Positions 7,080 through 37,619 of a stretch of DNA of 64,000 nucleotides are shown here, piece by piece. Position 1 is the first letter of the stretch. Every line of letters starts with the position of its first letter. Location of the stretch: assembly GCA_045596625.1 (NCBI GenBank), contig JAZOCU010000054.1, positions 29,282 to 93,281 on the forward strand. Reading direction: 5' to 3'. Origin of the DNA: Oscillospiraceae bacterium. Its GTDB lineage: Bacteria; Bacillota; Clostridia; Oscillospirales; Ruminococcaceae. The translations under genes were made by a program, and so were the position numbers. A model generated the notes under the pieces. It did no database searches. It was not told the DNA's origin and saw only the letters and a list, made by a program, of their open reading frames with translations.

Positions 7080-9122
7080 TCAATCCAGCATTGCAAGTTT
7101 CCGCAAGATCAAAGCTGCATCCGAGGCCGTTGGTTTTCCATCACGGTCAAGATCTGCCTGCGCTCTGCCTTGCAGCGTTACCGTAACCTGCGGGTCTTCC
7201 GCCACAAACCGGCACAACAATACAACATCAGCAATGGCTACCACGCCGTTTTCATCCACATCACCCAGCAACAATACCGGTGGCTCTGTGGTGGTAGTGG
7301 TTGTCGTAGTTGTAGTGGTTGTCGTAGTTGTTGTGGTGGTAGTGGTTGTTGTGGTTTCCGGTATCGGCTGACAATAGAGGGTACAAGCATCTGCTGAGCC
7401 ATATGACTCGGCACCGCCTGATATCCGAAGCTGAATTGTTACCCGGTCACCATTATACGCATTAGCGGATACTGTAGGGCTCTGCCATTGGTTCCAGCCG
7501 GTCAGATCTCCTTCTGCGGTATCACATACCGTACCATTCACCGCAATGGTCAATACATAATGGGAAGTAGCATCCCCTTGCATCTGCAAGGAAAATACAT
7601 ATGCACCATCTTTGCGGATCTGTACATCGGTTGAAGCGGTGCTGCCGGAAAATGCCGTCTTGGAATACCAATGCAAGGCACAGGCGCCATCATAAGGATC
7701 CTCCTGCCGCACATCAAAATGATCGCCGGCAGTCGGCTGCAGATTCCATCCGCTGGGACGGTCTGTCCATCCATTTTGCATTTCAAAGCCGGGATTCACC
7801 AGCAGATTATCCGGATCAGTTGTCACGCCGCTGCCACGGATCTGCTGAAATACCGACAGGGAGGAAAGCGGCTTGCCGGATGCATCGAACAACGCCTGAT
7901 TATCTACAGAGCTGCCGCCATAATACTTACCGTCGGGATCGTATTCCATAGATGCCTGCGTTGCCCAGCCGGATCCGTCACGCTCCCATTTCTGCAGATT
8001 CTCATCATAGCTGTTGCCCACCGAAAGCCATGCAGGCTCCCAGTAAAACGCACCGATTCCTCTGCCGTTGTCTACAGCAGCCACAGCAGCAAACACATCG
8101 CTGATGCATTGTGCCTGTCCTTCGGGGCTGATGGCATAATTCACATAGCTGCCCAGATCACCATCACCCGAAATGGTATTGGGGAAGTAATCCGCATCGG
8201 TTTTGGTATACAGCCAAGAGGTTTCTGCCACCATGACAAGCTTGTTGTAATTCTTCGCAACGCCATTGAGAACATTGGTCAGATTCGCCATGGTGCCGTG
8301 CCAATAGGGGTAATAGGAAGATGCAAACACATCATAATCCACATTGCATTGTGCAAGCATCTGAGCATAATAATCATAATTGCCCGATTTTTCGGGATTG
8401 GTAAAATGAATGGCAACCAGCGTATTCCGATCAAATTCGCGCACAGCTCTGGCGCCTGCATTCCACAGATTGCCAAGCAGCTGCCAGCCCTCAAGACTCC
8501 AGTTATAATCCGAAAGCATAGTGCCGCACATACCACCCGTCGTTTCATTACCGATCTGCACCATCGCGATCTGTGCACCGGTAGCAGCAACCTGTTTTAA
8601 TGTACCGGCAGTAAACTCATAAATCGCCTGTGCTTTCTGATCATTATTATAATTCGCCCAAGCTTTGGGGGCCTTTTGCTTGGCAGGATCTGCCCAGAAA
8701 TCCGAATAATGGAAATCCAGCAGCATTGCAAGTCCTGCATCGGCACAGCGCTTTGCAATAGCAACAGCACAATCTACATCGCAGGCACCTCCGCCATAGG
8801 TCGCACGGCTTGAAGAATGATAAGGATCGTTCCAGATCCGCACACGCACAGTATTCACACCGGATGCCGCCAACGTTTGAAAGATATCACAAGGATTTCC
8901 CTGTGCATCCCGATATACCACGCCGCTGCGCTCCAAGGCAATCACCGAAGACACATCCACACCCTTGAACGGTGCGCCGTCTGCAAAGGGTGTTGCTGTA
9001 AGTCCTTGAAACACCACCGGTGAGGCTGCTTCCGCTTTGATAACAGAGGCATCCGGCAACGCAGTACCCAGCAGCATCGCAGCCGCACAGCAAAGGGAAA
9101 GAAAAACATTTCTCTTTTTCAT
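7080..9122 (-). CDS. cellulosomal arabinogalactan endo-beta-1,4-galactanase (GH53 - CBM-like module - Thr linker - dockerin)
   Basis: Signal peptide MKKRNVFLSLCCAAAML. GH53 core motifs: GVDVSS, VRVRIWNDP, DFHYSDFWADPAKQ, VQIGNETTGG, AFYWEPAW. A jelly-roll CBM-like module begins NLLVNPGFE. About 23 consecutive Thr follow. The dockerin carries Ca-binding repeats DVDENGVVAIADV and DLDRDGKPTASDA. Start set at ATG 9122 (GGGGA RBS). Confidence 0.85.
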   Translation of the reverse strand: MKKRNVFLSLCCAAAMLLGTALPDASVIKAEAASPVVFQGLTATPFADGAPFKGVDVSSVIALERSGVVYRDAQGNPCDIFQTLAASGVNTVRVRIWNDPYHSSSRATYGGGACDVDCAVAIAKRCADAGLAMLLDFHYSDFWADPAKQKAPKAWANYNNDQKAQAIYEFTAGTLKQVAATGAQIAMVQIGNETTGGMCGTMLSDYNWSLEGWQLLGNLWNAGARAVREFDRNTLVAIHFTNPEKSGNYDYYAQMLAQCNVDYDVFASSYYPYWHGTMANLTNVLNGVAKNYNKLVMVAETSWLYTKTDADYFPNTISGDGDLGSYVNYAISPEGQAQCISDVFAAVAAVDNGRGIGAFYWEPAWLSVGNSYDENLQKWERDGSGWATQASMEYDPDGKYYGGSSVDNQALFDASGKPLSSLSVFQQIRGSGVTTDPDNLLVNPGFEMQNGWTDRPSGWNLQPTAGDHFDVRQEDPYDGACALHWYSKTAFSGSTASTDVQIRKDGAYVFSLQMQGDATSHYVLTIAVNGTVCDTAEGDLTGWNQWQSPTVSANAYNGDRVTIQLRISGGAESYGSADACTLYCQPIPETTTTTTTTTTTTTTTTTTTTTTTEPPVLLLGDVDENGVVAIADVVLLCRFVAEDPQVTVTLQGRAQADLDRDGKPTASDAALILRKLAMLD
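7287..7355 (-). repeat. coding homopolymeric Thr linker (ACN codon run)
   Basis: About 23 successive Thr codons read on the minus strand between the CBM-like module and the dockerin. Confidence 0.9.
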
Positions 9123-9138
9123 ATGCAAATCCCCTTCA

Positions 9139-9149
9139 ATACAATTGAT
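9139..9149. promoter_or_regulatory. ATACAATTGAT motif copy 1 (candidate operator half)
   Basis: ATACAATTG recurs 65 bp away at 9204-9212. This copy lies between the predicted GH53 transcription start and the RBS. Confidence 0.3.
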
Positions 9150-9173
9150 AAGCGAAAACATTTCCGCAATGTT

Positions 9174-9202
9174 ACTATATCATAAAACTCGCTCCTGTAC
9201 AA
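9174..9202 (-). promoter_or_regulatory. candidate promoter of the GH53 gene
   Basis: Minus strand reads TTGTAC, 17 nt, TATAGT, about 50 nt upstream of ATG 9122. Confidence 0.4.
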
Positions 9203-9203
9203 G

Positions 9204-9215
9204 ATACAATTGTAT
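9204..9215. promoter_or_regulatory. perfect 12-bp palindrome ATACAATTGTAT (candidate operator)
   Basis: Self-complementary. It abuts the -35 box of the candidate GH53 promoter. Confidence 0.35.
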
Positions 9216-9230
9216 TCTTTTACTGACGAA

Positions 9231-9590
9231 TTATCTCGGATCTGCCCGTTCGTTCATTGTATCGGAAAGATAATACTGCAAATAACGCCGCAGCCGGATG
9301 CGAGCACGTTTCAATGTGCGGGAAACAGTACATTCCGCTACCGAATACCGCTCTGCGATTTCTTTCATGGTCATGCCTTCAAAGCAATACAACGCAAAAT
9401 ACTGCTGCTGACAAGGCGTCAGCTCCTGCTTCCAAACCGCCCTAGCAGCGCGCAGCAGGGCCGTTCGCTGCTGCTGAACAGGGATTTCATCAAGGCCAAA
9501 AGCAGCTGCCGTATCTTTCGCACACTGCGCCACCCATCCTGTATCATACTGCAGCACCTCCTGAGAAACACGTGTGCGTTTCTCAGTCAT
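9231..9590 (-). CDS. sigma-70 region-4-type helix-turn-helix protein (no region 2)
   Basis: 119 aa. LTPCQQQYFALYCFEGMTMKEIAERYSVAECTVSRTLKRARIRLRRYL matches the sigma70_r4 / YlxM-like HTH pattern. Start codon overlaps the upstream stop (ATGA at 9587-9590). Confidence 0.6.
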   Translation of the reverse strand: MTEKRTRVSQEVLQYDTGWVAQCAKDTAAAFGLDEIPVQQQRTALLRAARAVWKQELTPCQQQYFALYCFEGMTMKEIAERYSVAECTVSRTLKRARIRLRRYLQYYLSDTMNERADPR

Positions 9591-9871
9591 ATCAATGTAC
9601 CTCGCTCATCATTGGCATAAACTGCAATGCTGCGCATTGCTTCGGCAAGCTCACTATGTTCCGCGGTAAGCAGTGCGATGCGCCGTTCCAAGCGATACTG
9701 CGTGTATATCGACTGCCGATCGCCGGTTTTCTGCTGCACACAGCGTTTCAGCTCACTGCGCAGCGCACGCCGCCGTGCATCCACTGCGCTCATAGCAGCG
9801 CTGTATGTCTGATACATCCGGGTATATGTTCCGCCGCTATTTTCATATTGATTTCCACGTTTTTGCAACAT
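9587..9871 (-). CDS. hypothetical coiled-coil protein, first gene of the SOS-box operon
   Basis: 94 aa, Arg/Glu/Leu-rich heptad-like segment (RRRALRSELKR...RLERRIALLTAEHSELAEAM). GGAGG RBS 7 nt before ATG 9871. Confidence 0.5.
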   Translation of the reverse strand: MLQKRGNQYENSGGTYTRMYQTYSAAMSAVDARRRALRSELKRCVQQKTGDRQSIYTQYRLERRIALLTAEHSELAEAMRSIAVYANDERGTLI

Positions 9872-9904
9872 CGCTTCCTCCTTTTACGACATCCGCCCTT
9901 ATAA

Positions 9905-9920
9905 TAGAACATATGTTCTA
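9905..9920. promoter_or_regulatory. LexA (SOS / Cheo) box
   Basis: Perfect 16-bp palindrome TAGAACATATGTTCTA containing GAAC-N4-GTTC, the Firmicutes LexA consensus CGAACATATGTTCG. It sits 5 nt downstream of the -10 box. Confidence 0.75.
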
Positions 9921-9925
9921 TTTTA

Positions 9926-9954
9926 ATTGTAACAGCAAATATCGTCTTTGTCAA
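9926..9954 (-). promoter_or_regulatory. consensus sigma-A promoter of the two-gene SOS module
   Basis: Minus strand reads TTGACA, 17 nt, TACAAT. Confidence 0.7.
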
Positions 9955-9989
9955 GGATAACAGCAAAGGATGTACAAAAAAGTGAACAT

Positions 9990-10030
9990 CAAAATAGAAA
10001 AGCGCCCCTTTCCCGTAGGAAAGAGGCGCT
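9990..10030 (-). terminator. rho-independent terminator of the xylanase gene
   Basis: Minus strand: AGCGCCTCTTTCC TACG GGAAAGGGGCGCT followed by TTTTCTATTTT. Confidence 0.75.
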
Positions 10031-10067
10031 GTTCAAACACTATTCTTTGTACAAAGCGAAAGTCAGA

Positions 10068-12671
10068 TCAACCAAGCTTTGCAAGCAGACCGGCCAGATA
10101 CATGAGAATTGCACTGGTATCATTTGCGTTGACGCCGGAAGCGCCATCGCAATCGCCGTTGACAATACCCTGCTGGGTAACGTTTACAGTCGTATCCTCA
10201 GCAACATAGCGGCTGAGCAGAACAGCATCGTCAATTTTCACGATACCATCGCAGTTCACATCGCCGTATTTGCTCGGATCGGGTGTTTTAGAAGTCGTGG
10301 TGGTAGTAGTTGTTGTGGTGGTAGTTGTGGTAGTCGTAGTGGTTGTAGTGGTAGTTGTAGTAGTTGTGGGAGGCTGAATGTTTTGTGCCACTTCAAGAAC
10401 AGCATAGTAAGCGGGCTTCGGCTGATATCCGGAGCTGAACAGAAGCGGATTCTGCTCACGACGCCAGCTGATGCTGTCGTTGGTGCCCCAAAGCGTCAGG
10501 CTGCTGATAGAATCTGCATTATCAACTGCCAGCTGGAAGATCTCCTTGTAAAGCTGAGCCTGTGTCTCGAAATCGGAACAGGTAATATCCAGCTCGGTGA
10601 TCTGAACATCCAGACCGGTGCTGATGAACTTCTCAAGAGCAGTCTTATAAACAGAAGCGCTGGGGTAGTTGGTTGCTAAGTGAGACTGCATACCGATACC
10701 ATCGATGATGCCCTCGGCCTTCAGTGCCATGGCAAGCTCATAGATATCGTTGGTCTTGTTCGGAACATACTCGTTATAGTCGTTGATATAAAGCTTGCAG
10801 CCTGCGGGAGCATACTTTCTTGCTGCTCTGAATGCAGTAAATACGAACTCGTTGTTGTTCTCACCGTAAATCTTTGCCCATGTTGAAGCAGCCGAATCGC
10901 TGGTTGCATATTCTTTACGCATTCCGCCGCCATCGTTAAGGAACAGCTCATTACATACGTCATATGCATAGACATTCAGATTCGGATACTGAGATTTCAA
11001 AGCTTCAAACGTGTTCTTGATAAAGCTTTCGATACGCTGATCCATAACCTGCTTGCTTACGTAAGCGCCGTTGTCAGAGAAGTTTTCACGGAAGAACCAG
11101 TCAGGCGTCTGGCTGTGCCAGATGAAGGTATGACCGCGGACAGCGATACCATTCTGCTCACAGAAGCTCAGTGTCTGTGCAGCTCTGCTGAGATTTACCT
11201 GTGCATTCACGTTGTTGCCTCTTTGCTGAGAAGCAGACTTATCGAGAATGGCATCGGGCTTCAGTTCGTTTTCGGGTGTAATGCTGTTAAAGTGCTTCTT
11301 GATGAAATCACCGCCGGAGCCCAACTCGCCCGGGCTGACAGAGGTGCCCAGTTTGAAGCAGGAAGCAAAGGCTTCCTTCAAATATTCACTGCTGGGATTG
11401 CCGGGGGTCACAATAGGATCATCGTTATTACCGGGAGCGGTTGTGGACGAGCCTTTAGCAGTCAGCTGCACATCATCCAGATAGAAGGAGACGATATCCG
11501 ACGCAGAGGGTGTCTCGGTATAGGTAGTCTGAATATACAGCGAGATCGAAGTTGCACCGCTGGGAACCGTAAAGGATGTTGCCAGCTCTGCCCACTTGCC
11601 GCTGGATGATGTAGCACTTACCAGATCATCATACGCCGTTGAACCGTTAAGATCATATTGCAGACCAAGTGTGTAGCCCTGCGATGCGTACGTATCATTC
11701 TTGTAGCCGACAAAAGCAGAAATATCATAGCTCTGACCGGCAACCAGATCGGTACCCGAAGGTACTGTCAGACCATGCCAAGCCTGTGTTCTGTCTGTGA
11801 CATACAATGATTGACTGCCGCCATGCGTAAACTCCTTGGTAAAGCCATAGCTTACATCGCCGCGGCCTGCCCAGCTTGTTCCGCTGCCCTCGAAATTATC
11901 GGTAACACCCTTGCCGCTGCCGCTGGGGGGTGTAAAGCTTACTTGCGGTTCCGGATCCGGAGTGGGCGTTGTGCTGCCCTGACCCAGTGTAATATTGTTC
12001 TTGGTAACAGTACAGGATCCGCTGGACTGATATCCTTCCGTTACAAGCGAAACCTCATAAAGTCCGCCCATATCCAAGCCCATCTTTTCCCATTCTGCAA
12101 AGTGCTTGGCAATATCAATGGTACCGCTGGTACGCTTCTGACCATCCTTACGCACACTGAAATACTGCGGGAATGTCTTGGTGCCTTCGATAGAAGGCTG
12201 CTGGACACGTGTGGTCTGATAAACATCATACTGATCGCCGTCTACGGTAATGGTTCCCTTATAGCCGGTGCCCCCTGGCGGTCTCCAGGTACCCCAGCTC
12301 TCAACGATGTAGTACTCAACGAGCGGAGACTTGGTCCAGCCGTAAACGGAAAGATAGGAGTTGCCGTTCGGATTGTAGTTTGCACTGTAATCCATCGTGA
12401 TACCGCCGAGGGTATCCCACTGAGGCGAGTTGTTCACCCACTTCTTGCCGGTACGGAACAATACGTTCTCAATACCACTCCAGCTGCAGCTGTAGGTACC
12501 ATTACCGAGAAGCTGCATCTGTGCGGAACCCTGATCATGCTGATTCCAGAGTTCCCAGTCATAACCGTCCTGCGTACCTTGATCGCAGCGGTCTGCCGCA
12601 CTGACGCTGAAAGCCATCGAGCTCATACCGACGACCATGGCGCAAACGGCACTGATCAAACGTTTACTCAT
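10068..12671 (-). CDS. cellulosomal bifunctional xylanase (GH11 - CBM22-like - GH10 - Thr linker - dockerin)
   Basis: Signal peptide MSKRLISAVCAMVVGMSSMAFSVSA. GH11 motifs YLSVYGWTKSPLVEYYIVESWG and TFPQYFSVR. A CBM22/CBM4-9-like module begins NFEGSGTSWAGRG. GH10 motifs RGHTFIWHSQTP, DVCNELF and ITELDI. About 25 Thr follow, then a dockerin (DVNCDGIVKIDDA, NGDCDGASGVNANDT). Start at ATG 12671 with a GGAGG RBS. Confidence 0.9.
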   Translation of the reverse strand: MSKRLISAVCAMVVGMSSMAFSVSAADRCDQGTQDGYDWELWNQHDQGSAQMQLLGNGTYSCSWSGIENVLFRTGKKWVNNSPQWDTLGGITMDYSANYNPNGNSYLSVYGWTKSPLVEYYIVESWGTWRPPGGTGYKGTITVDGDQYDVYQTTRVQQPSIEGTKTFPQYFSVRKDGQKRTSGTIDIAKHFAEWEKMGLDMGGLYEVSLVTEGYQSSGSCTVTKNNITLGQGSTTPTPDPEPQVSFTPPSGSGKGVTDNFEGSGTSWAGRGDVSYGFTKEFTHGGSQSLYVTDRTQAWHGLTVPSGTDLVAGQSYDISAFVGYKNDTYASQGYTLGLQYDLNGSTAYDDLVSATSSSGKWAELATSFTVPSGATSISLYIQTTYTETPSASDIVSFYLDDVQLTAKGSSTTAPGNNDDPIVTPGNPSSEYLKEAFASCFKLGTSVSPGELGSGGDFIKKHFNSITPENELKPDAILDKSASQQRGNNVNAQVNLSRAAQTLSFCEQNGIAVRGHTFIWHSQTPDWFFRENFSDNGAYVSKQVMDQRIESFIKNTFEALKSQYPNLNVYAYDVCNELFLNDGGGMRKEYATSDSAASTWAKIYGENNNEFVFTAFRAARKYAPAGCKLYINDYNEYVPNKTNDIYELAMALKAEGIIDGIGMQSHLATNYPSASVYKTALEKFISTGLDVQITELDITCSDFETQAQLYKEIFQLAVDNADSISSLTLWGTNDSISWRREQNPLLFSSGYQPKPAYYAVLEVAQNIQPPTTTTTTTTTTTTTTTTTTTTTTTTTSKTPDPSKYGDVNCDGIVKIDDAVLLSRYVAEDTTVNVTQQGIVNGDCDGASGVNANDTSAILMYLAGLLAKLG
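10293..10367 (-). repeat. coding homopolymeric Thr linker (ACN codon run)
   Basis: About 25 successive Thr codons between the GH10 module and the dockerin. Confidence 0.9.
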
Positions 12672-12757
12672 GATAAAAACCTCCATTTGTAATTCTCTTT
12701 TTCTCTTTTTCTTCATGCGAATATAGTTTCCCCTAAAGCAAAACAAATGGCTAATTT

Positions 12758-13281: not shown

Positions 13282-13764
13282 CTATTTCCCATATCGGATC
13301 TGCCGCCACGCCTCCGTCAAACGCGCCACAGACCATGCCGCATTGGCAGGAGACGTTGATGGCAGGCAGACCGCTTCTCGTCCGATCGTCTGCCGGAGAT
13401 ATCGATTATAATATTTCAGTGCCGTTTTGCCGTTGACATAGATCCGTTCGATCGCGGCGCATTCCAAGATTCGGCTCAGATCATTGGGGATCACATCCCG
13501 AATGGTGCTGTCAGCACTGCCTTCGATCTCACAGACAGCAATCACATCCCACAATGCGATTCCGTTGGAGAGCAGAAACCGACGTTTTTCCTCAACCGTC
13601 TTAGGTGTTTCACACTCGAACACCCCTGCACATACCTTCCAGAACCGATTTTGCGGGTGTCCATAGAAAAACTGCATTTCACGGGATCTGACTGACGGAA
13701 AGCTCCCTAAGATCAAAATCCGCGACTGCGCATTATAAATCGGCGCAATAGGATGCTGCACCAT
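13282..13764 (-). CDS. DNA-deoxyinosine / uracil-DNA glycosylase superfamily protein
   Basis: 160 aa. RILILGSFPSVRS and GHPQNRFW match the UDG-superfamily (hypoxanthine-DNA glycosylase type) N-terminal motif. Confidence 0.7.
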   Translation of the reverse strand: MVQHPIAPIYNAQSRILILGSFPSVRSREMQFFYGHPQNRFWKVCAGVFECETPKTVEEKRRFLLSNGIALWDVIAVCEIEGSADSTIRDVIPNDLSRILECAAIERIYVNGKTALKYYNRYLRQTIGREAVCLPSTSPANAAWSVARLTEAWRQIRYGK

Positions 13765-24550: not shown

Positions 24551-25128
24551 CAGATTCCTCCTTTATGTTCTGCGGCACAGTGGACAGGATCTGTACAGAC
24601 AGCATCCTCCTGTGCGATTTCTCTGGCAAGTGTTTGCAGCTCAAGGGGTGTGACTTCCATCGGTGTTCTCCCCAGAGCACGCTCCATATGTTCTGTCATG
24701 CGGCATAAATAGTCTGTGAGCTGCTGCAGCTCTGTTTCGGAAAATCCGTCAAAGACCGCCGCATCAAACTGATCGATGACATCACAGCAGCTTTTCAGGA
24801 CATCCTTACCTGCCTCTGTTAACACAAGCTGCTTGCAGCGCTGATTATCGGGACAGACTGCCGCTGTCAGATATCCCAATTGCTTCAGAGGCTTTATTGT
24901 CATGGCTACGGCAGCAGGCGTAATATTCAGCCGTTCCGCCACATCGATCTGCTTGCAGCCGGGATGCTTCAATATATCCTCCAGCAAATGAACCTGCGTT
25001 CCATTGAGCGGTGCAGTATGCTCTACCTGTCGGATATAGATCCTACGCAAAAAATGCAGCTTGGCAAATCGGCCGAACAACTTGCGATATCGTTCCGCAG
25101 CATTCGGATCCCGGATCGTTTCTGTCAT
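24550..25128 (-). CDS. MarR-family transcriptional regulator with C-terminal extension
   Basis: Winged-HTH core (QIDVAERLNITPAAVAMTIKPLKQLGYL). 192 aa, about 45 aa longer than typical MarR proteins. Translationally coupled to the exporter genes. Confidence 0.85.
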   Translation of the reverse strand: MTETIRDPNAAERYRKLFGRFAKLHFLRRIYIRQVEHTAPLNGTQVHLLEDILKHPGCKQIDVAERLNITPAAVAMTIKPLKQLGYLTAAVCPDNQRCKQLVLTEAGKDVLKSCCDVIDQFDAAVFDGFSETELQQLTDYLCRMTEHMERALGRTPMEVTPLELQTLAREIAQEDAVCTDPVHCAAEHKGGI

Positions 25129-37400: not shown

Positions 37401-37619
37401 ATGATAACCGAAATAGTCCTTGCAGCATTCTGGCTGCTGAGCAATGTCAATGCCGGCGATAATACGCCTGTGGGACTGTATCTTGCCATCGGCGGCATCG
37501 CACTGCTGCTGATGATTGCTATGGCTGCAACAAAAGCACTTTCCAACAAAGAAAACAAAAACGATCAGAACAAGAGTGCAAAATCCAAGGCTACAGAAAA
37601 GGATTCTGAAACGAAGTAA
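37401..37619 (+). CDS. small hypothetical membrane protein (72 aa)
   Basis: GGAGGTG RBS 9 nt before the ATG. Two hydrophobic segments and a Lys/Asn/Glu-rich tail. Confidence 0.35.

Follow-up and report, generated by a model that had tools for sequence, protein, structure and literature searches.

A putative LexA-controlled operon for a helical hairpin and a sigma-region-4-type HTH protein in gut and rumen Clostridia

The locus and its transcription signals

The window, i.e. the whole stretch of 64,000 nucleotides from an Oscillospiraceae bacterium analysed here, contains a small two-gene operon on the minus strand. Pfam assigns a GH53 domain plus a dockerin to the neighbouring gene on one side and a GH11-CBM-GH10 arrangement plus a dockerin to that on the other side. 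The following features were located (window positions):

9204-9215, no strand: 12-bp palindrome ATACAATTGTAT with perfect symmetry, located shortly before the GH53 promoter, partly conserved in the relative L001
9231-9590, minus strand: ORF for the 119-aa sigma-region-4/YlxM-like HTH protein of subfamily A (Sigma70_r4, r4_2 and UPF0122 matches)
9587-9871, minus strand: ORF for the 94-aa helical-hairpin partner (23 homologues, no Pfam family)
9877-9881, minus strand: ribosome-binding site GGAGG, 5 nt 5' of the ATG at 9871
9903-9922, no strand: putative LexA-type operator, 20-bp perfect palindrome AATAGAACATATGTTCTATT with the core GAACATATGTTC at 9907-9918
9926-9931, minus strand: -10 hexamer TACAAT, separated from the -35 by a 17-nt spacer and preceded by TGt (extended -10)
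9949-9954, minus strand: -35 hexamer TTGACA, the same hexamer at the same place in other subfamily-A loci and identical in L001/L004
10001-10030, minus strand: intrinsic terminator belonging to the GH11-GH10 xylanase gene upstream (13-pair stem with 8 GC pairs, T-run)

TTGACA, TACAAT, the palindrome, GGAGG and the ATG were all found on the minus strand where an earlier note on this DNA had placed them. The promoter matches the sigma-70 consensus in 11 of 12 positions. TAGAACATATGTTCTA (9920-9905, minus strand) starts 5 nt past the -10 box. The palindrome described previously at 9905-9920 is real, and its perfect symmetry in fact reaches 20 bp (9903-9922). Judged from the spacing to the -10 box, the operator would occupy about +1 to +16. 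The start codon of the 119-aa ORF (9590-9231) overlaps the stop codon of the 94-aa ORF (9871-9587) in an ATGA. The two genes form a real, translationally coupled operon. The terminator at 10030-10001 is also kept in L001/L004 and is predicted to insulate the promoter of the pair from upstream xylanase transcription. A search for a terminator between the pair and the GH53 gene found none.

The adjacent GH53 promoter had been proposed as a target of the pair. ATACAATTGTAT is present in a single copy in the window and is not above chance at up to 2 mismatches; a related site, TCAATTGTAT, is located in the GH53 5' leader. The proposal is not borne out, as ATACAATTGTAT has no second copy in the window and shows no enrichment. 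The 'ATACAATTG' sites of GH53 were rejected as targets, as they are neither enriched nor recurrent. An Rfam scan of 8900-10300 yielded sub-threshold noise (RsaJ with 31.7 bits vs. 100, PyrG leader with 31.4 vs. 65).

The 119-aa HTH protein and its family

In the 119-aa protein, Pfam detects only Sigma70_r4 (5e-9, 35.9 bits, cutoff 24.1), r4_2 (32.8 bits, cutoff 25.7) and UPF0122 (PF04297; 31.8 bits, cutoff 22.7, beneath the stronger Sigma70_r4 matches), all within residues 52-104. The YlxM equivalog model of NCBIfam, whose cutoff is 80 bits, gives 35.1 bits, and the best match among PDB sequence profiles is YlxM (1s7o, 3e-7). Residues ~50-105 of the structural model superpose with an rmsd of 1.1-1.2 Å on sigma-E region 4 bound to -35 DNA (2h27). 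Hence, the region-4 helix-turn-helix of the sigma-70 family is present. Sigma region 2 found no model match in either protein in Pfam and other profile scans, in agreement with the original description of the second protein as carrying a region-4-type HTH only. TIGR02937 aligns just under its cutoff and only with profile positions 103-165 of 165. The N-terminal 45 residues, modelled at low confidence, match neither region-2 nor region-3 models. HMM searches had been suggested for Sigma70_r4 and for the phage-regulator families ArpU and DUF1492: The former matched, the latter two found no match in Pfam. A dN/dS of 0.06 indicates purifying selection on the HTH gene.

The protein belongs to a family of ~100-aa sigma-region-4/YlxM-like proteins, for which 398 cluster representatives were counted at E<=1e-10. 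The family emerged from an exhaustive HMMER search and from locus scans; word-indexed searches gave just 3 HTH matches and 1 partner match. With 398 representatives on the HTH side and 23 homologues of the partner, the pair is not the orphan for which it had been taken. It belongs to an as yet unnamed hairpin-plus-HTH family that is widespread among gut and rumen Clostridia. Conservation extends to the gene order, in which the partner precedes the HTH gene and the stop codon of the former overlaps the start codon of the latter. Subfamily A, to which the pair belongs, is marked by the N-terminus 'RVSxxVLEFDP'.

YlxM/p13 (UPF0122, PF04297; 1s7o, 1xsv) shares with the 119-aa protein the motif LTxxQxxYxxLYYxxxxSxxEIAxxxGVS, a length of ~110 aa and the sigma-4-like HTH. 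In contrast to YlxM, where the HTH occupies the N-terminal half, it is found here in the C-terminal half, and YlxM has no hairpin partner. Furthermore, we know of no LexA box at ylxM. The ylxM gene is located immediately upstream of ffh; neither ffh nor any other SRP gene was found among the window genes scanned, and the neighbours of the pair are the GH53 and xylanase genes.

The 94-aa hairpin partner

AlphaFold models the partner as a two-helix antiparallel hairpin (pLDDT 86) with predicted helices at residues 15-46 and 52-92. The 23 homologues share the pattern Y..ML..Y..AA..L..R...L..EL ... LE.RI..L..E......I..YA..E, and the gene is under purifying selection (dN/dS 0.26). Taken by its conservation, the 94-aa ORF is judged to be a real, conserved gene. 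According to hhalign, the partner profiles of subfamily A and subfamilies B/C/D are related (probability 83.5%, E 8e-6). A pairwise BLASTP of the 94-aa protein with its 77-aa counterpart from Oscillibacter was not significant, so that the relation is supported at the profile-profile level only.

A helical hairpin induced in the SOS response is YnzC of B. subtilis. Kinship with the partner was rejected, as profile similarity is lacking (probability 0.2%), and the relation is one of analogy at most. A Rosetta-stone argument from proteins in which a coiled coil is fused to a double HTH (L109/L117 on viral contigs; P0033) was dropped, because hhalign found no significant similarity between the fusion N-termini and the partner profile.

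The palindrome as a probable LexA operator

In B. subtilis, C. difficile, C. acetobutylicum and C. perfringens, LexA operators have the sequence GAAC-N4-GTTC (PMC4234289). GAACATATGTTC has both the GAAC-N4-GTTC core (Cheo box) and the AT-rich spacer by which sites of Firmicutes LexA regulons are defined (PMC4234289). The site overlaps the promoter and start with the same geometry in 10 lineages. In the window, the bare core occurs twice vs. 0.78 copies expected, which alone is not significant; we calculate that chance would place an exact core in ~0.6% of upstream regions of 400 nt. The second copy at 24990 has a GC-rich spacer, is located inside an ORF of the MarR family and was judged a chance occurrence. 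The same holds for a relaxed match at 37568, which precedes a metal P-type ATPase gene and has a poor spacer and a poor half-site.

It is the comparison with relatives that makes the box more than a chance finding. In L001/L004, which is 82% identical, -35, -10 and box are identical, although synonymous sites have diverged considerably (pS 0.47-0.60). The box is found at the promoter in 10 of the 12 subfamily-A lineages, which are mutually <=64% identical, among them all seven two-gene lineages. It is absent from L086 and L088. The recurring layout is TTGACA-17-TAnAAT-(5-8 nt)-(T)AGAAC-N4-GTTC(T) with the box at about +1, and several lineages have a second or third box. In our own reading of the loci, all but one of the four-base spacers listed agree with the RNRY in the consensus from B. 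subtilis. The earlier view of the palindrome as a LexA operator placed for repression is the best reading of this recurrence in 10 of 12 lineages and of the footprint in L001/L004. Comparative support for a LexA site is strong, and a predicted direct wiring to LexA is a hallmark of subfamily A.

No lexA, recA or uvr gene was found in the window or any fetched locus; tblastn with the LexA sequence of B. subtilis and the RecA sequence of E. coli gave no match there. The use of this motif by the LexA of the present lineage is assumed from the conservation reported in the literature for Firmicutes.

Genomic context

The GC content of the pair equals that of its flanks. Neither around the pair nor elsewhere in the window are phage, integrase or transposase genes annotated, and SOS genes are likewise missing among the annotated window genes, as observed before. 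The cellulosomal surroundings, to which significance had been attached, are incidental, as neighbourhoods differ between lineages: In other lineages, the pair adjoins yaaO-darA-holB-yaaT, groES/EL or an ArsR/P-type ATPase pair. At Oscillibacter-type loci, a convergent tRNA-Tyr/tRNA-Thr pair is located between the LexA-boxed promoter and the operon.

Proposed function and alternative explanations

The pair is probably a LexA-repressed, DNA-damage-inducible two-gene operon on an ordinary chromosome that encodes a second-tier SOS regulator pair. LexA bound to the perfect Firmicutes-type operator over the start would block the near-consensus housekeeping promoter. Upon DNA damage, RecA-stimulated self-cleavage of LexA would remove the repressor, and both coupled proteins would be made: the 94-aa two-helix antiparallel hairpin and the 119-aa protein with the C-terminal sigma-region-4/YlxM HTH. 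The two may associate and jointly serve as a second-tier SOS regulator. The pair could bind -35-like DNA as a stand-alone factor. Alternatively, it could dock on RNA polymerase at the place of sigma region 4 and shift promoter use after damage. The analysis demonstrates the sequence elements with their conservation, both folds, the family and its genomic contexts. From these we infer that LexA binds, that DNA damage induces the operon, that the two proteins associate and that they have a regulatory effect; their association is suggested by gene order and coupling. To our knowledge, YlxM, the closest solved relative, has not been established as a DNA-binding regulator. Therefore, a non-transcriptional role of the pair is possible.

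A precedent is UviA from the uviA-uviB/bcn region of C. perfringens plasmid pIP404, which has a putative LexA site in its regulatory region and is inducible by UV and mitomycin C (PMC4459074, PMC10467148). In both cases, a clostridial regulatory gene of the sigma-70 superfamily is combined with a LexA-type site, and the damage induction shown for UviA is predicted here. UviA is a full sigma factor of the TcdR group with regions 2.4 and 4.2 (PMC4459074). In contrast, the 119-aa protein has region 4 only. Moreover, UviA is plasmid-borne and targets bcn, whereas the present gene is chromosomal and accompanied by a hairpin partner.

The hairpin might instead antagonize the HTH protein in the manner of a helical anti-sigma factor that wraps region 4, so that SOS induction would yield an inactive complex in need of a second signal. 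Many structural neighbours of the HTH model are indeed region-4 domains held by helical anti-sigmas (RslA, RsiG, FlgM), and the partner, with a dN/dS of 0.26 vs. 0.06, is the faster-evolving of the two proteins. An overlapping arrangement with the antagonist gene first is typical of antitoxin-toxin and anti-sigma operons, and the order of the pair resembles it. However, the partner matches known anti-sigma factors neither in sequence nor in fold and has neither a sensing domain nor a membrane segment. We consider an antagonist unlikely; it would be compatible with the main explanation and differ from it just in the sign of the partner's effect.

Somewhat less probable still is that the palindrome serves as an autoregulatory operator of the pair, or is bound by a different local repressor that acts as a dimer, and that the module is unrelated to DNA damage. 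What speaks against this is that sigma-region-4 domains normally recognize asymmetric sites of the -35 type and do so as monomers. A conserved palindrome over the promoter of a transcription factor gene is the usual signature of autoregulation, and nearly all exact boxes in ~650 kb of fetched loci precede genes of the HTH family. This apparent exclusivity is a sampling effect, because the sampled loci were all centred on that family. Sister subfamilies B and D and members on viral contigs have the same recognition helix, STVSRTLKRAR, as subfamily A, and no box was found directly upstream in those checked, which argues against the box as the family's own operator. In addition, the core of the motif is exactly that of Firmicutes LexA sites, and its spacer is of the preferred, AT-rich type (PMC4234289, PMC3998124). 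LexA is therefore expected to bind, whatever else binds there.

In a third explanation, the pair constitutes a split sigma factor of the kind known as SigO-RsoA from B. subtilis: Region 4 would come from the HTH protein and the function of region 2 from the 94-aa protein, and RNA polymerase would be directed to a new promoter class after damage. SigO-RsoA distributes sigma functions over two polypeptides, one of them small, and RsoA has a sigma-region-2-like segment (PMC7826278). It responds to acid stress and not to LexA (PMC10141391). A region-4-only HTH protein that superposes on region 4 bound to -35 DNA and is translationally coupled to a small partner would fit such a system. In contrast to RsoA, the partner is a two-helix hairpin: None of its 23 members gives a consistent Pfam match, Sigma70_r2 included, no sigma match was found among PDB sequence profiles, and Foldseek yields generic hairpins only. 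As the partner does not resemble sigma region 2, the split-sigma idea is not supported. Furthermore, the N-terminal 45 residues of the HTH protein provide no region 2 or 3 either, and the box-bearing single-gene variants L020, L031 and L071 have no partner at all. The split sigma or phage late regulator envisaged in the earlier note thus fails the structural test, and we regard it as very improbable.

Phage relatives of the family do exist. Distant members (35-56% identity over the HTH half) are present on 32 IMG/VR viral contigs, and the best full-length PHROG match of the HTH protein is phrog_11138 (residues 3-105, E 1.7e-8), which is among the top three matches of all four IMG/VR relatives scanned and is related to the phage 'sigma factor' PHROGs 1740 and 3512. 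In the subfamily-like locus L088, the gene is located downstream of an ORF that, by eye, resembles phage lysozyme. However, all viral-contig relatives lack the subfamily-A N-terminus and the box, and tblastn of both proteins against 50,697 phage records and 72,556 plasmids returned no match. Unlike the PHROG members, no subfamily-A protein was found in phage collections. The combination expected of a phage late regulator, an ArpU/RinA/DUF1492 match in a prophage context, was not observed. Homologues are not confined to prophages, which had been named beforehand as the finding that would contradict a host module; they occupy variable, ordinary chromosome contexts. Since the surroundings are ordinary and variable and the phage and plasmid collections contain no subfamily member, the pair is not regarded as a prophage remnant. 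A decayed prophage or integrative element that kept a phage-type late regulator and its SOS control without host function is highly unlikely, also in view of the strong purifying selection on both genes, the GC content, the lack of annotated mobile-element genes and the intact genes and operator in ten lineages with different housekeeping contexts.

Returning to the SOS regulator pair, a more far-reaching joint reading can be formulated, which we consider unlikely. The pair would be a new RNA-polymerase-associated factor, a free-standing mimic of region 4 held or delivered by the hairpin, that displaces or competes with housekeeping sigma region 4 after damage and reprograms promoter choice. 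All of the family would have inherited its SOS wiring from a common ancestor. At Oscillibacter-type loci, the LexA-boxed promoter would read antisense through the convergent tRNA pair and couple damage signalling to tRNA transcription.

Significance

With this analysis, a large unnamed two-gene family composed of a hairpin and a ~100-aa HTH protein is defined. Its members are currently annotated as 'sigma-70 family RNA polymerase sigma factor' and 'hypothetical protein'; the former is misleading, because region 2 is absent. Our literature searches, which covered a published gut SOS meta-regulon, revealed nothing relevant on a LexA-controlled sigma-region-4 or YlxM-like gene. The recurrence of promoter plus site in ten lineages of gut and rumen Clostridia points to a hitherto undescribed regulator that would be inducible by DNA damage. 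The LexA regulons of dominant gut and rumen Clostridia, i.e. Oscillospiraceae and Ruminococcus-like fibre degraders, are known almost exclusively from motif scans. If the proposal is true, the pair would provide a handle on their non-repair responses to antibiotics, bile, oxygen and host-derived genotoxins. The outputs may comprise growth arrest, sporulation decisions or the control of mobile elements.

Promoter, operator and operon

The minus-strand reading of 9100-10200 contains every promoter, box, RBS and ORF element listed in the earlier note:

9954-9949, minus strand: -35 box TTGACA
9931-9926, minus strand: -10 box TACAAT, after a 17-nt spacer ending in TGt
9922-9903, minus-strand reading: perfect 20-bp palindrome AATAGAACATATGTTCTATT
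9920-9905, minus-strand reading: TAGAACATATGTTCTA, five bases past the -10 box
9881-9877, minus strand: GGAGG
9871-9587, minus strand: 94-aa ORF, ATG at 9871
9590-9231, minus strand: 119-aa ORF, ATGA overlap with the 94-aa ORF
10030-10001: 13-pair terminator ending the upstream xylanase gene

The promoter scores 11/12 with an extended -10 box in a consensus scan. The palindrome, described as 16 bp long, is present and perfect, but its true extent is 20 bp. The core GAAC-N4-GTTC occurs twice in the window (0.78 copies expected), which means little alone, so the weight of evidence must rest on relatives. The second copy, with a GC-rich spacer, is inside a MarR-family ORF. A relaxed box scan of the window yielded a single extra site, a poor one before a metal ATPase gene.

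Two close relatives, L001 (a Logan assembly) and L004 (a sheep-rectum Oscillospiraceae MAG), encode the pair at 82% (HTH protein) and 67% (partner) aa identity, with the same GH53 gene behind it. About half of the synonymous sites differ between window and L004 (pS 0.47 and 0.60). With a dN/dS of 0.26 (partner) and 0.06 (HTH protein), both are real genes under purifying selection. The -35 box, the -10 box and the entire LexA-type box are unchanged in these relatives; promoter spacer and leader have diverged.

A family with a helical partner

In first word-indexed homologue searches the pair looked like the orphan it had been taken for. This impression did not survive an exhaustive HMMER search with the HTH protein. 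At E<=0.001 it returned 3,257 cluster representatives, and 398 remained at E<=1e-10; many of these proteins are about 100 aa long. Genome and metagenome scans added about 90 loci. Subfamilies were split by the N-terminus of the HTH protein: A, with 'RVSxxVLEFDP', includes the window protein, B (Oscillibacter/Dysosmobacter-like) carries 'FDTRSSEWIGD', and the remaining proteins form C and D. The recognition helix STVSRTLKRAR is almost invariant across all of them. Most family HTH genes follow a small helical ORF, the stop codon of which overlaps the HTH start or directly adjoins it. Subfamily A partners form a clear family (8 locus sequences and 23 protein-database sequences). Their profile matches that of B/C/D partners (hhalign probability 83.5%, E 8e-6), and this match together with the kept gene order makes a common origin of the partners likely. 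NCBI labels one Oscillibacter pair 'sigma-70 family RNA polymerase sigma factor' and 'hypothetical protein'.

Several variants were seen. Oscillibacter-type operons have an extra first ORF of about 60 aa with a zinc-ribbon-like CxxC...CxxC pattern (L005 9472-9660, equivalents in L006-L009), which is not found in the window's subfamily. Many long proteins (350-1100 aa; P0005-P0015 and others) contain 5-14 tandem HTH units. Some viral-contig proteins of 382 aa (L108, L109/L117) combine an N-terminal coiled coil, which gave no significant hhalign match to the hairpin partner, with two HTH copies. In L014 (410-533) the HTH frame seems to be interrupted after the partner gene and before the conserved HTH half. 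L015 has this sequence as well, after an unrelated 309-aa ORF. Either the copy was frameshifted or rearranged, or the break stems from assembly.

Structure and possible action of the two proteins

As proposed before, the 119-aa protein has a region-4-type HTH without region 2: Pfam matches residues 52-104 to Sigma70_r4, Sigma70_r4_2 and UPF0122/YlxM, with no region-2 hit. Its best solved relative by sequence profile is YlxM (1s7o, E 3e-7); region 4 of SigF and that of FliA come next. The model is confident at residues ~50-105 only. This part overlays sigma-E region 4 on -35 DNA (2h27) with an rmsd of 1.1-1.2 A, and also SigF region 4 and YlxM. For the partner, the AlphaFold model (23-sequence alignment, mean pLDDT 86) is an antiparallel two-helix hairpin (helices 15-46 and 52-92). 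Foldseek returned only generic hairpins for it, PDB sequence profiles nothing meaningful and Pfam no family for the 94-aa protein. Across the 23 members Pfam gave no consistent family, Sigma70_r2 included.

Hairpin and HTH protein might act jointly, and the pair might bind -35-like DNA or sit at the sigma region 4 site of the polymerase. It is equally possible that the hairpin antagonizes the HTH protein: among the structural neighbours of the HTH model is region 4 held by helical anti-sigma proteins, which wrap around it. The earlier note likened the two proteins to a split phage-type late regulator. Read as a split sigma factor of the SigO-RsoA type (PMC7826278), the pair fails the defining test, since the partner has no region-2 likeness. 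Judged by its modelled fold and these searches, the 94-aa protein is not a region-2 surrogate. Taken together, the absent region-2 signal and the profile and overlay matches identify the 119-aa protein as sigma-4/YlxM-like, not as a sigma factor.

The box and its probable ligand

In subfamily A, the operon strand reads cTTGACA, 17 nt, TAnAAT, 5-8 nt, (T)AGAAC-N4-GTTC(T). This layout was found in all seven two-gene lineages (window, L012, L014, L016/L018/L124, L019, L040, L013/L125-127) and in three partner-less single-gene lineages (L020/L073, L031/L034 and L071, the last with the box inside the promoter spacer). Several lineages (L016, L018, L124) have a second or third box. L086 and L088 are without one. 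By our own arithmetic about 0.6% of 400-nt regions should contain the exact core. Therefore, its presence in 10 of 12 lineages with 31-64% mutual identity is far beyond chance.

The LexA operator of B. subtilis is GAAC-N4-GTTC, and in C. difficile the clostridial consensus GAAC-N4-GTT(C/T) was validated by surface plasmon resonance (PMC4234289). The simplest reading of a perfect consensus site located at +1 of a strong promoter is a LexA repression site. The consensus is taken from B. subtilis and clostridia; neither the window nor any collected relative locus contains lexA, recA or uvr. The earlier claim of a LexA box is borne out by consensus and conservation; binding itself is a prediction from sequence. 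Alternatively, the box might be the operator of the HTH family itself. This is unlikely, because relatives with the same recognition helix do not have it: no box lies immediately upstream of the operon in subfamilies B and D, within about 1 kb in C, or upstream in the 19 inspected representatives of 32 viral-contig loci. LexA would accordingly be the repressor of the pair promoter, as the comparison across lineages argues, and DNA damage would lift this repression.

Eleven of 18 subfamily B/C loci have a LexA-type box, accompanied by a plus-strand promoter, within 700 nt (150-480 nt) beyond a tRNA-Tyr/tRNA-Thr pair. The tRNA genes lie on the opposite strand (convergent), between box and hairpin-HTH operon.

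L005 8955-9470: box beyond the tRNA pair; also in L009, L011, L047, L074, L052, L055, L056, L084, L090

In three loci scanned, the sole strong promoter adjoining the operon faces away and drives the tRNAs, and the box-to-operon interval has neither a plus-strand terminator nor a plus-strand consensus promoter. Transcription from the SOS promoter either continues across the tRNA genes into the operon or yields a short unannotated transcript. In the former case, SOS wiring would be an ancestral trait of the family. A divergent gene in L005 (8196-9130; also in L009, L011) encodes a 250-252-aa protein with XRE-HTH and S24 peptidase domains of the CI/HdiR type, assigned by eye. The intergenic region contains three AACAAG-N3-CTTGTT copies beside a CGAACATATGTGC box. 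Gene and repeats look like a small chromosomal immunity-type switch by the tRNA pair.

Genomic context

The pair is flanked by GH53+dockerin and GH11-CBM-GH10+dockerin genes (Pfam). The xylanase (10068-12746) unites GH11, CBM_4_9 and GH10 in a single 892-aa protein, and poly-threonine linkers of about 23-27 consecutive T precede the dockerins of both cellulosomal enzymes (7080-9161, 10068-12746). Around them are genes for a TadA-like deaminase, a CPBP protease, a CarD-like protein, a UDG-family glycosylase and an amino-acid ABC transporter, and farther off P-type ATPases, RNase J, GdpP, MarR with ABC exporters, and Lon. The UDG-superfamily glycosylase gene (13282-13764), 3.4 kb upstream of the pair, is the sole DNA-repair gene seen nearby; no LexA-type box, even with one mismatch, lies near it.

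As noted earlier, no recA, uvr, phage or integrative-element genes are nearby: the annotated window genes include no phage, integrase or SOS gene. Neither protein matched any of 50,697 phage and 72,556 plasmid records. IMG/VR contains 32 distant relatives of the wider family, and the subfamily A N-terminus is absent from all 19 representatives inspected. The GC content of the pair is that of its flanks. Other subfamily A lineages, rather than being confined to prophages, occupy varied chromosomal housekeeping contexts: L020 and L071 are immediately upstream of yaaO-darA-holB-yaaT, L125 lies between an ArsR/P-type ATPase pair and groES-groEL, and L124 adjoins hydrolase and GGDEF-EAL genes. A prophage remnant is therefore rejected, and the module is a host gene set. 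Its place between cellulosomal genes is incidental.

L020 (5908-9948) and L071 (5848-9946) are single-gene variants of about 98 aa that lack the hairpin partner and keep the box. A yaaO-like Orn/Lys/Arg decarboxylase gene follows within about 10 nt, then darA (c-di-AMP receptor), holB and PSP1/yaaT, so that the decarboxylase may be SOS-controlled in these organisms.

The GH53 promoter had been put forward as a target of the pair. Two elements are found there:

within 9122-9215: perfect 12-bp palindrome ATACAATTGTAT, abutting the -35 box of the GH53 promoter
within 9122-9215: related TCAATTGTAT, in the GH53 5' leader

L001 conserves both in part, and they probably constitute the operator of some GH53 regulator. 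ATACAATTGTAT is a single copy in the window and not enriched; hence, no link to the pair is apparent. A terminator scan of the interval (9231-9122) from the 119-aa gene to the same-strand GH53 gene found no terminator-like site, and the gene order is kept in L001 and L004. Consequently, the LexA-boxed promoter could read through into the galactanase gene.

Relation to known SOS regulators

The closest clostridial precedent for an SOS-wired sigma-superfamily regulator is UviA/bcn, with a putative LexA site and induction by UV and mitomycin C (PMC4459074). However, UviA is a complete sigma factor, whereas the 119-aa protein comprises region 4 only. Literature searches turned up neither a sigma-4/YlxM-like gene under LexA control nor this hairpin family, and the word 'sigma' is absent from the gut SOS meta-regulon paper. 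What is new here is a predicted SOS-regulated regulator that joins a known fold to an undescribed partner.
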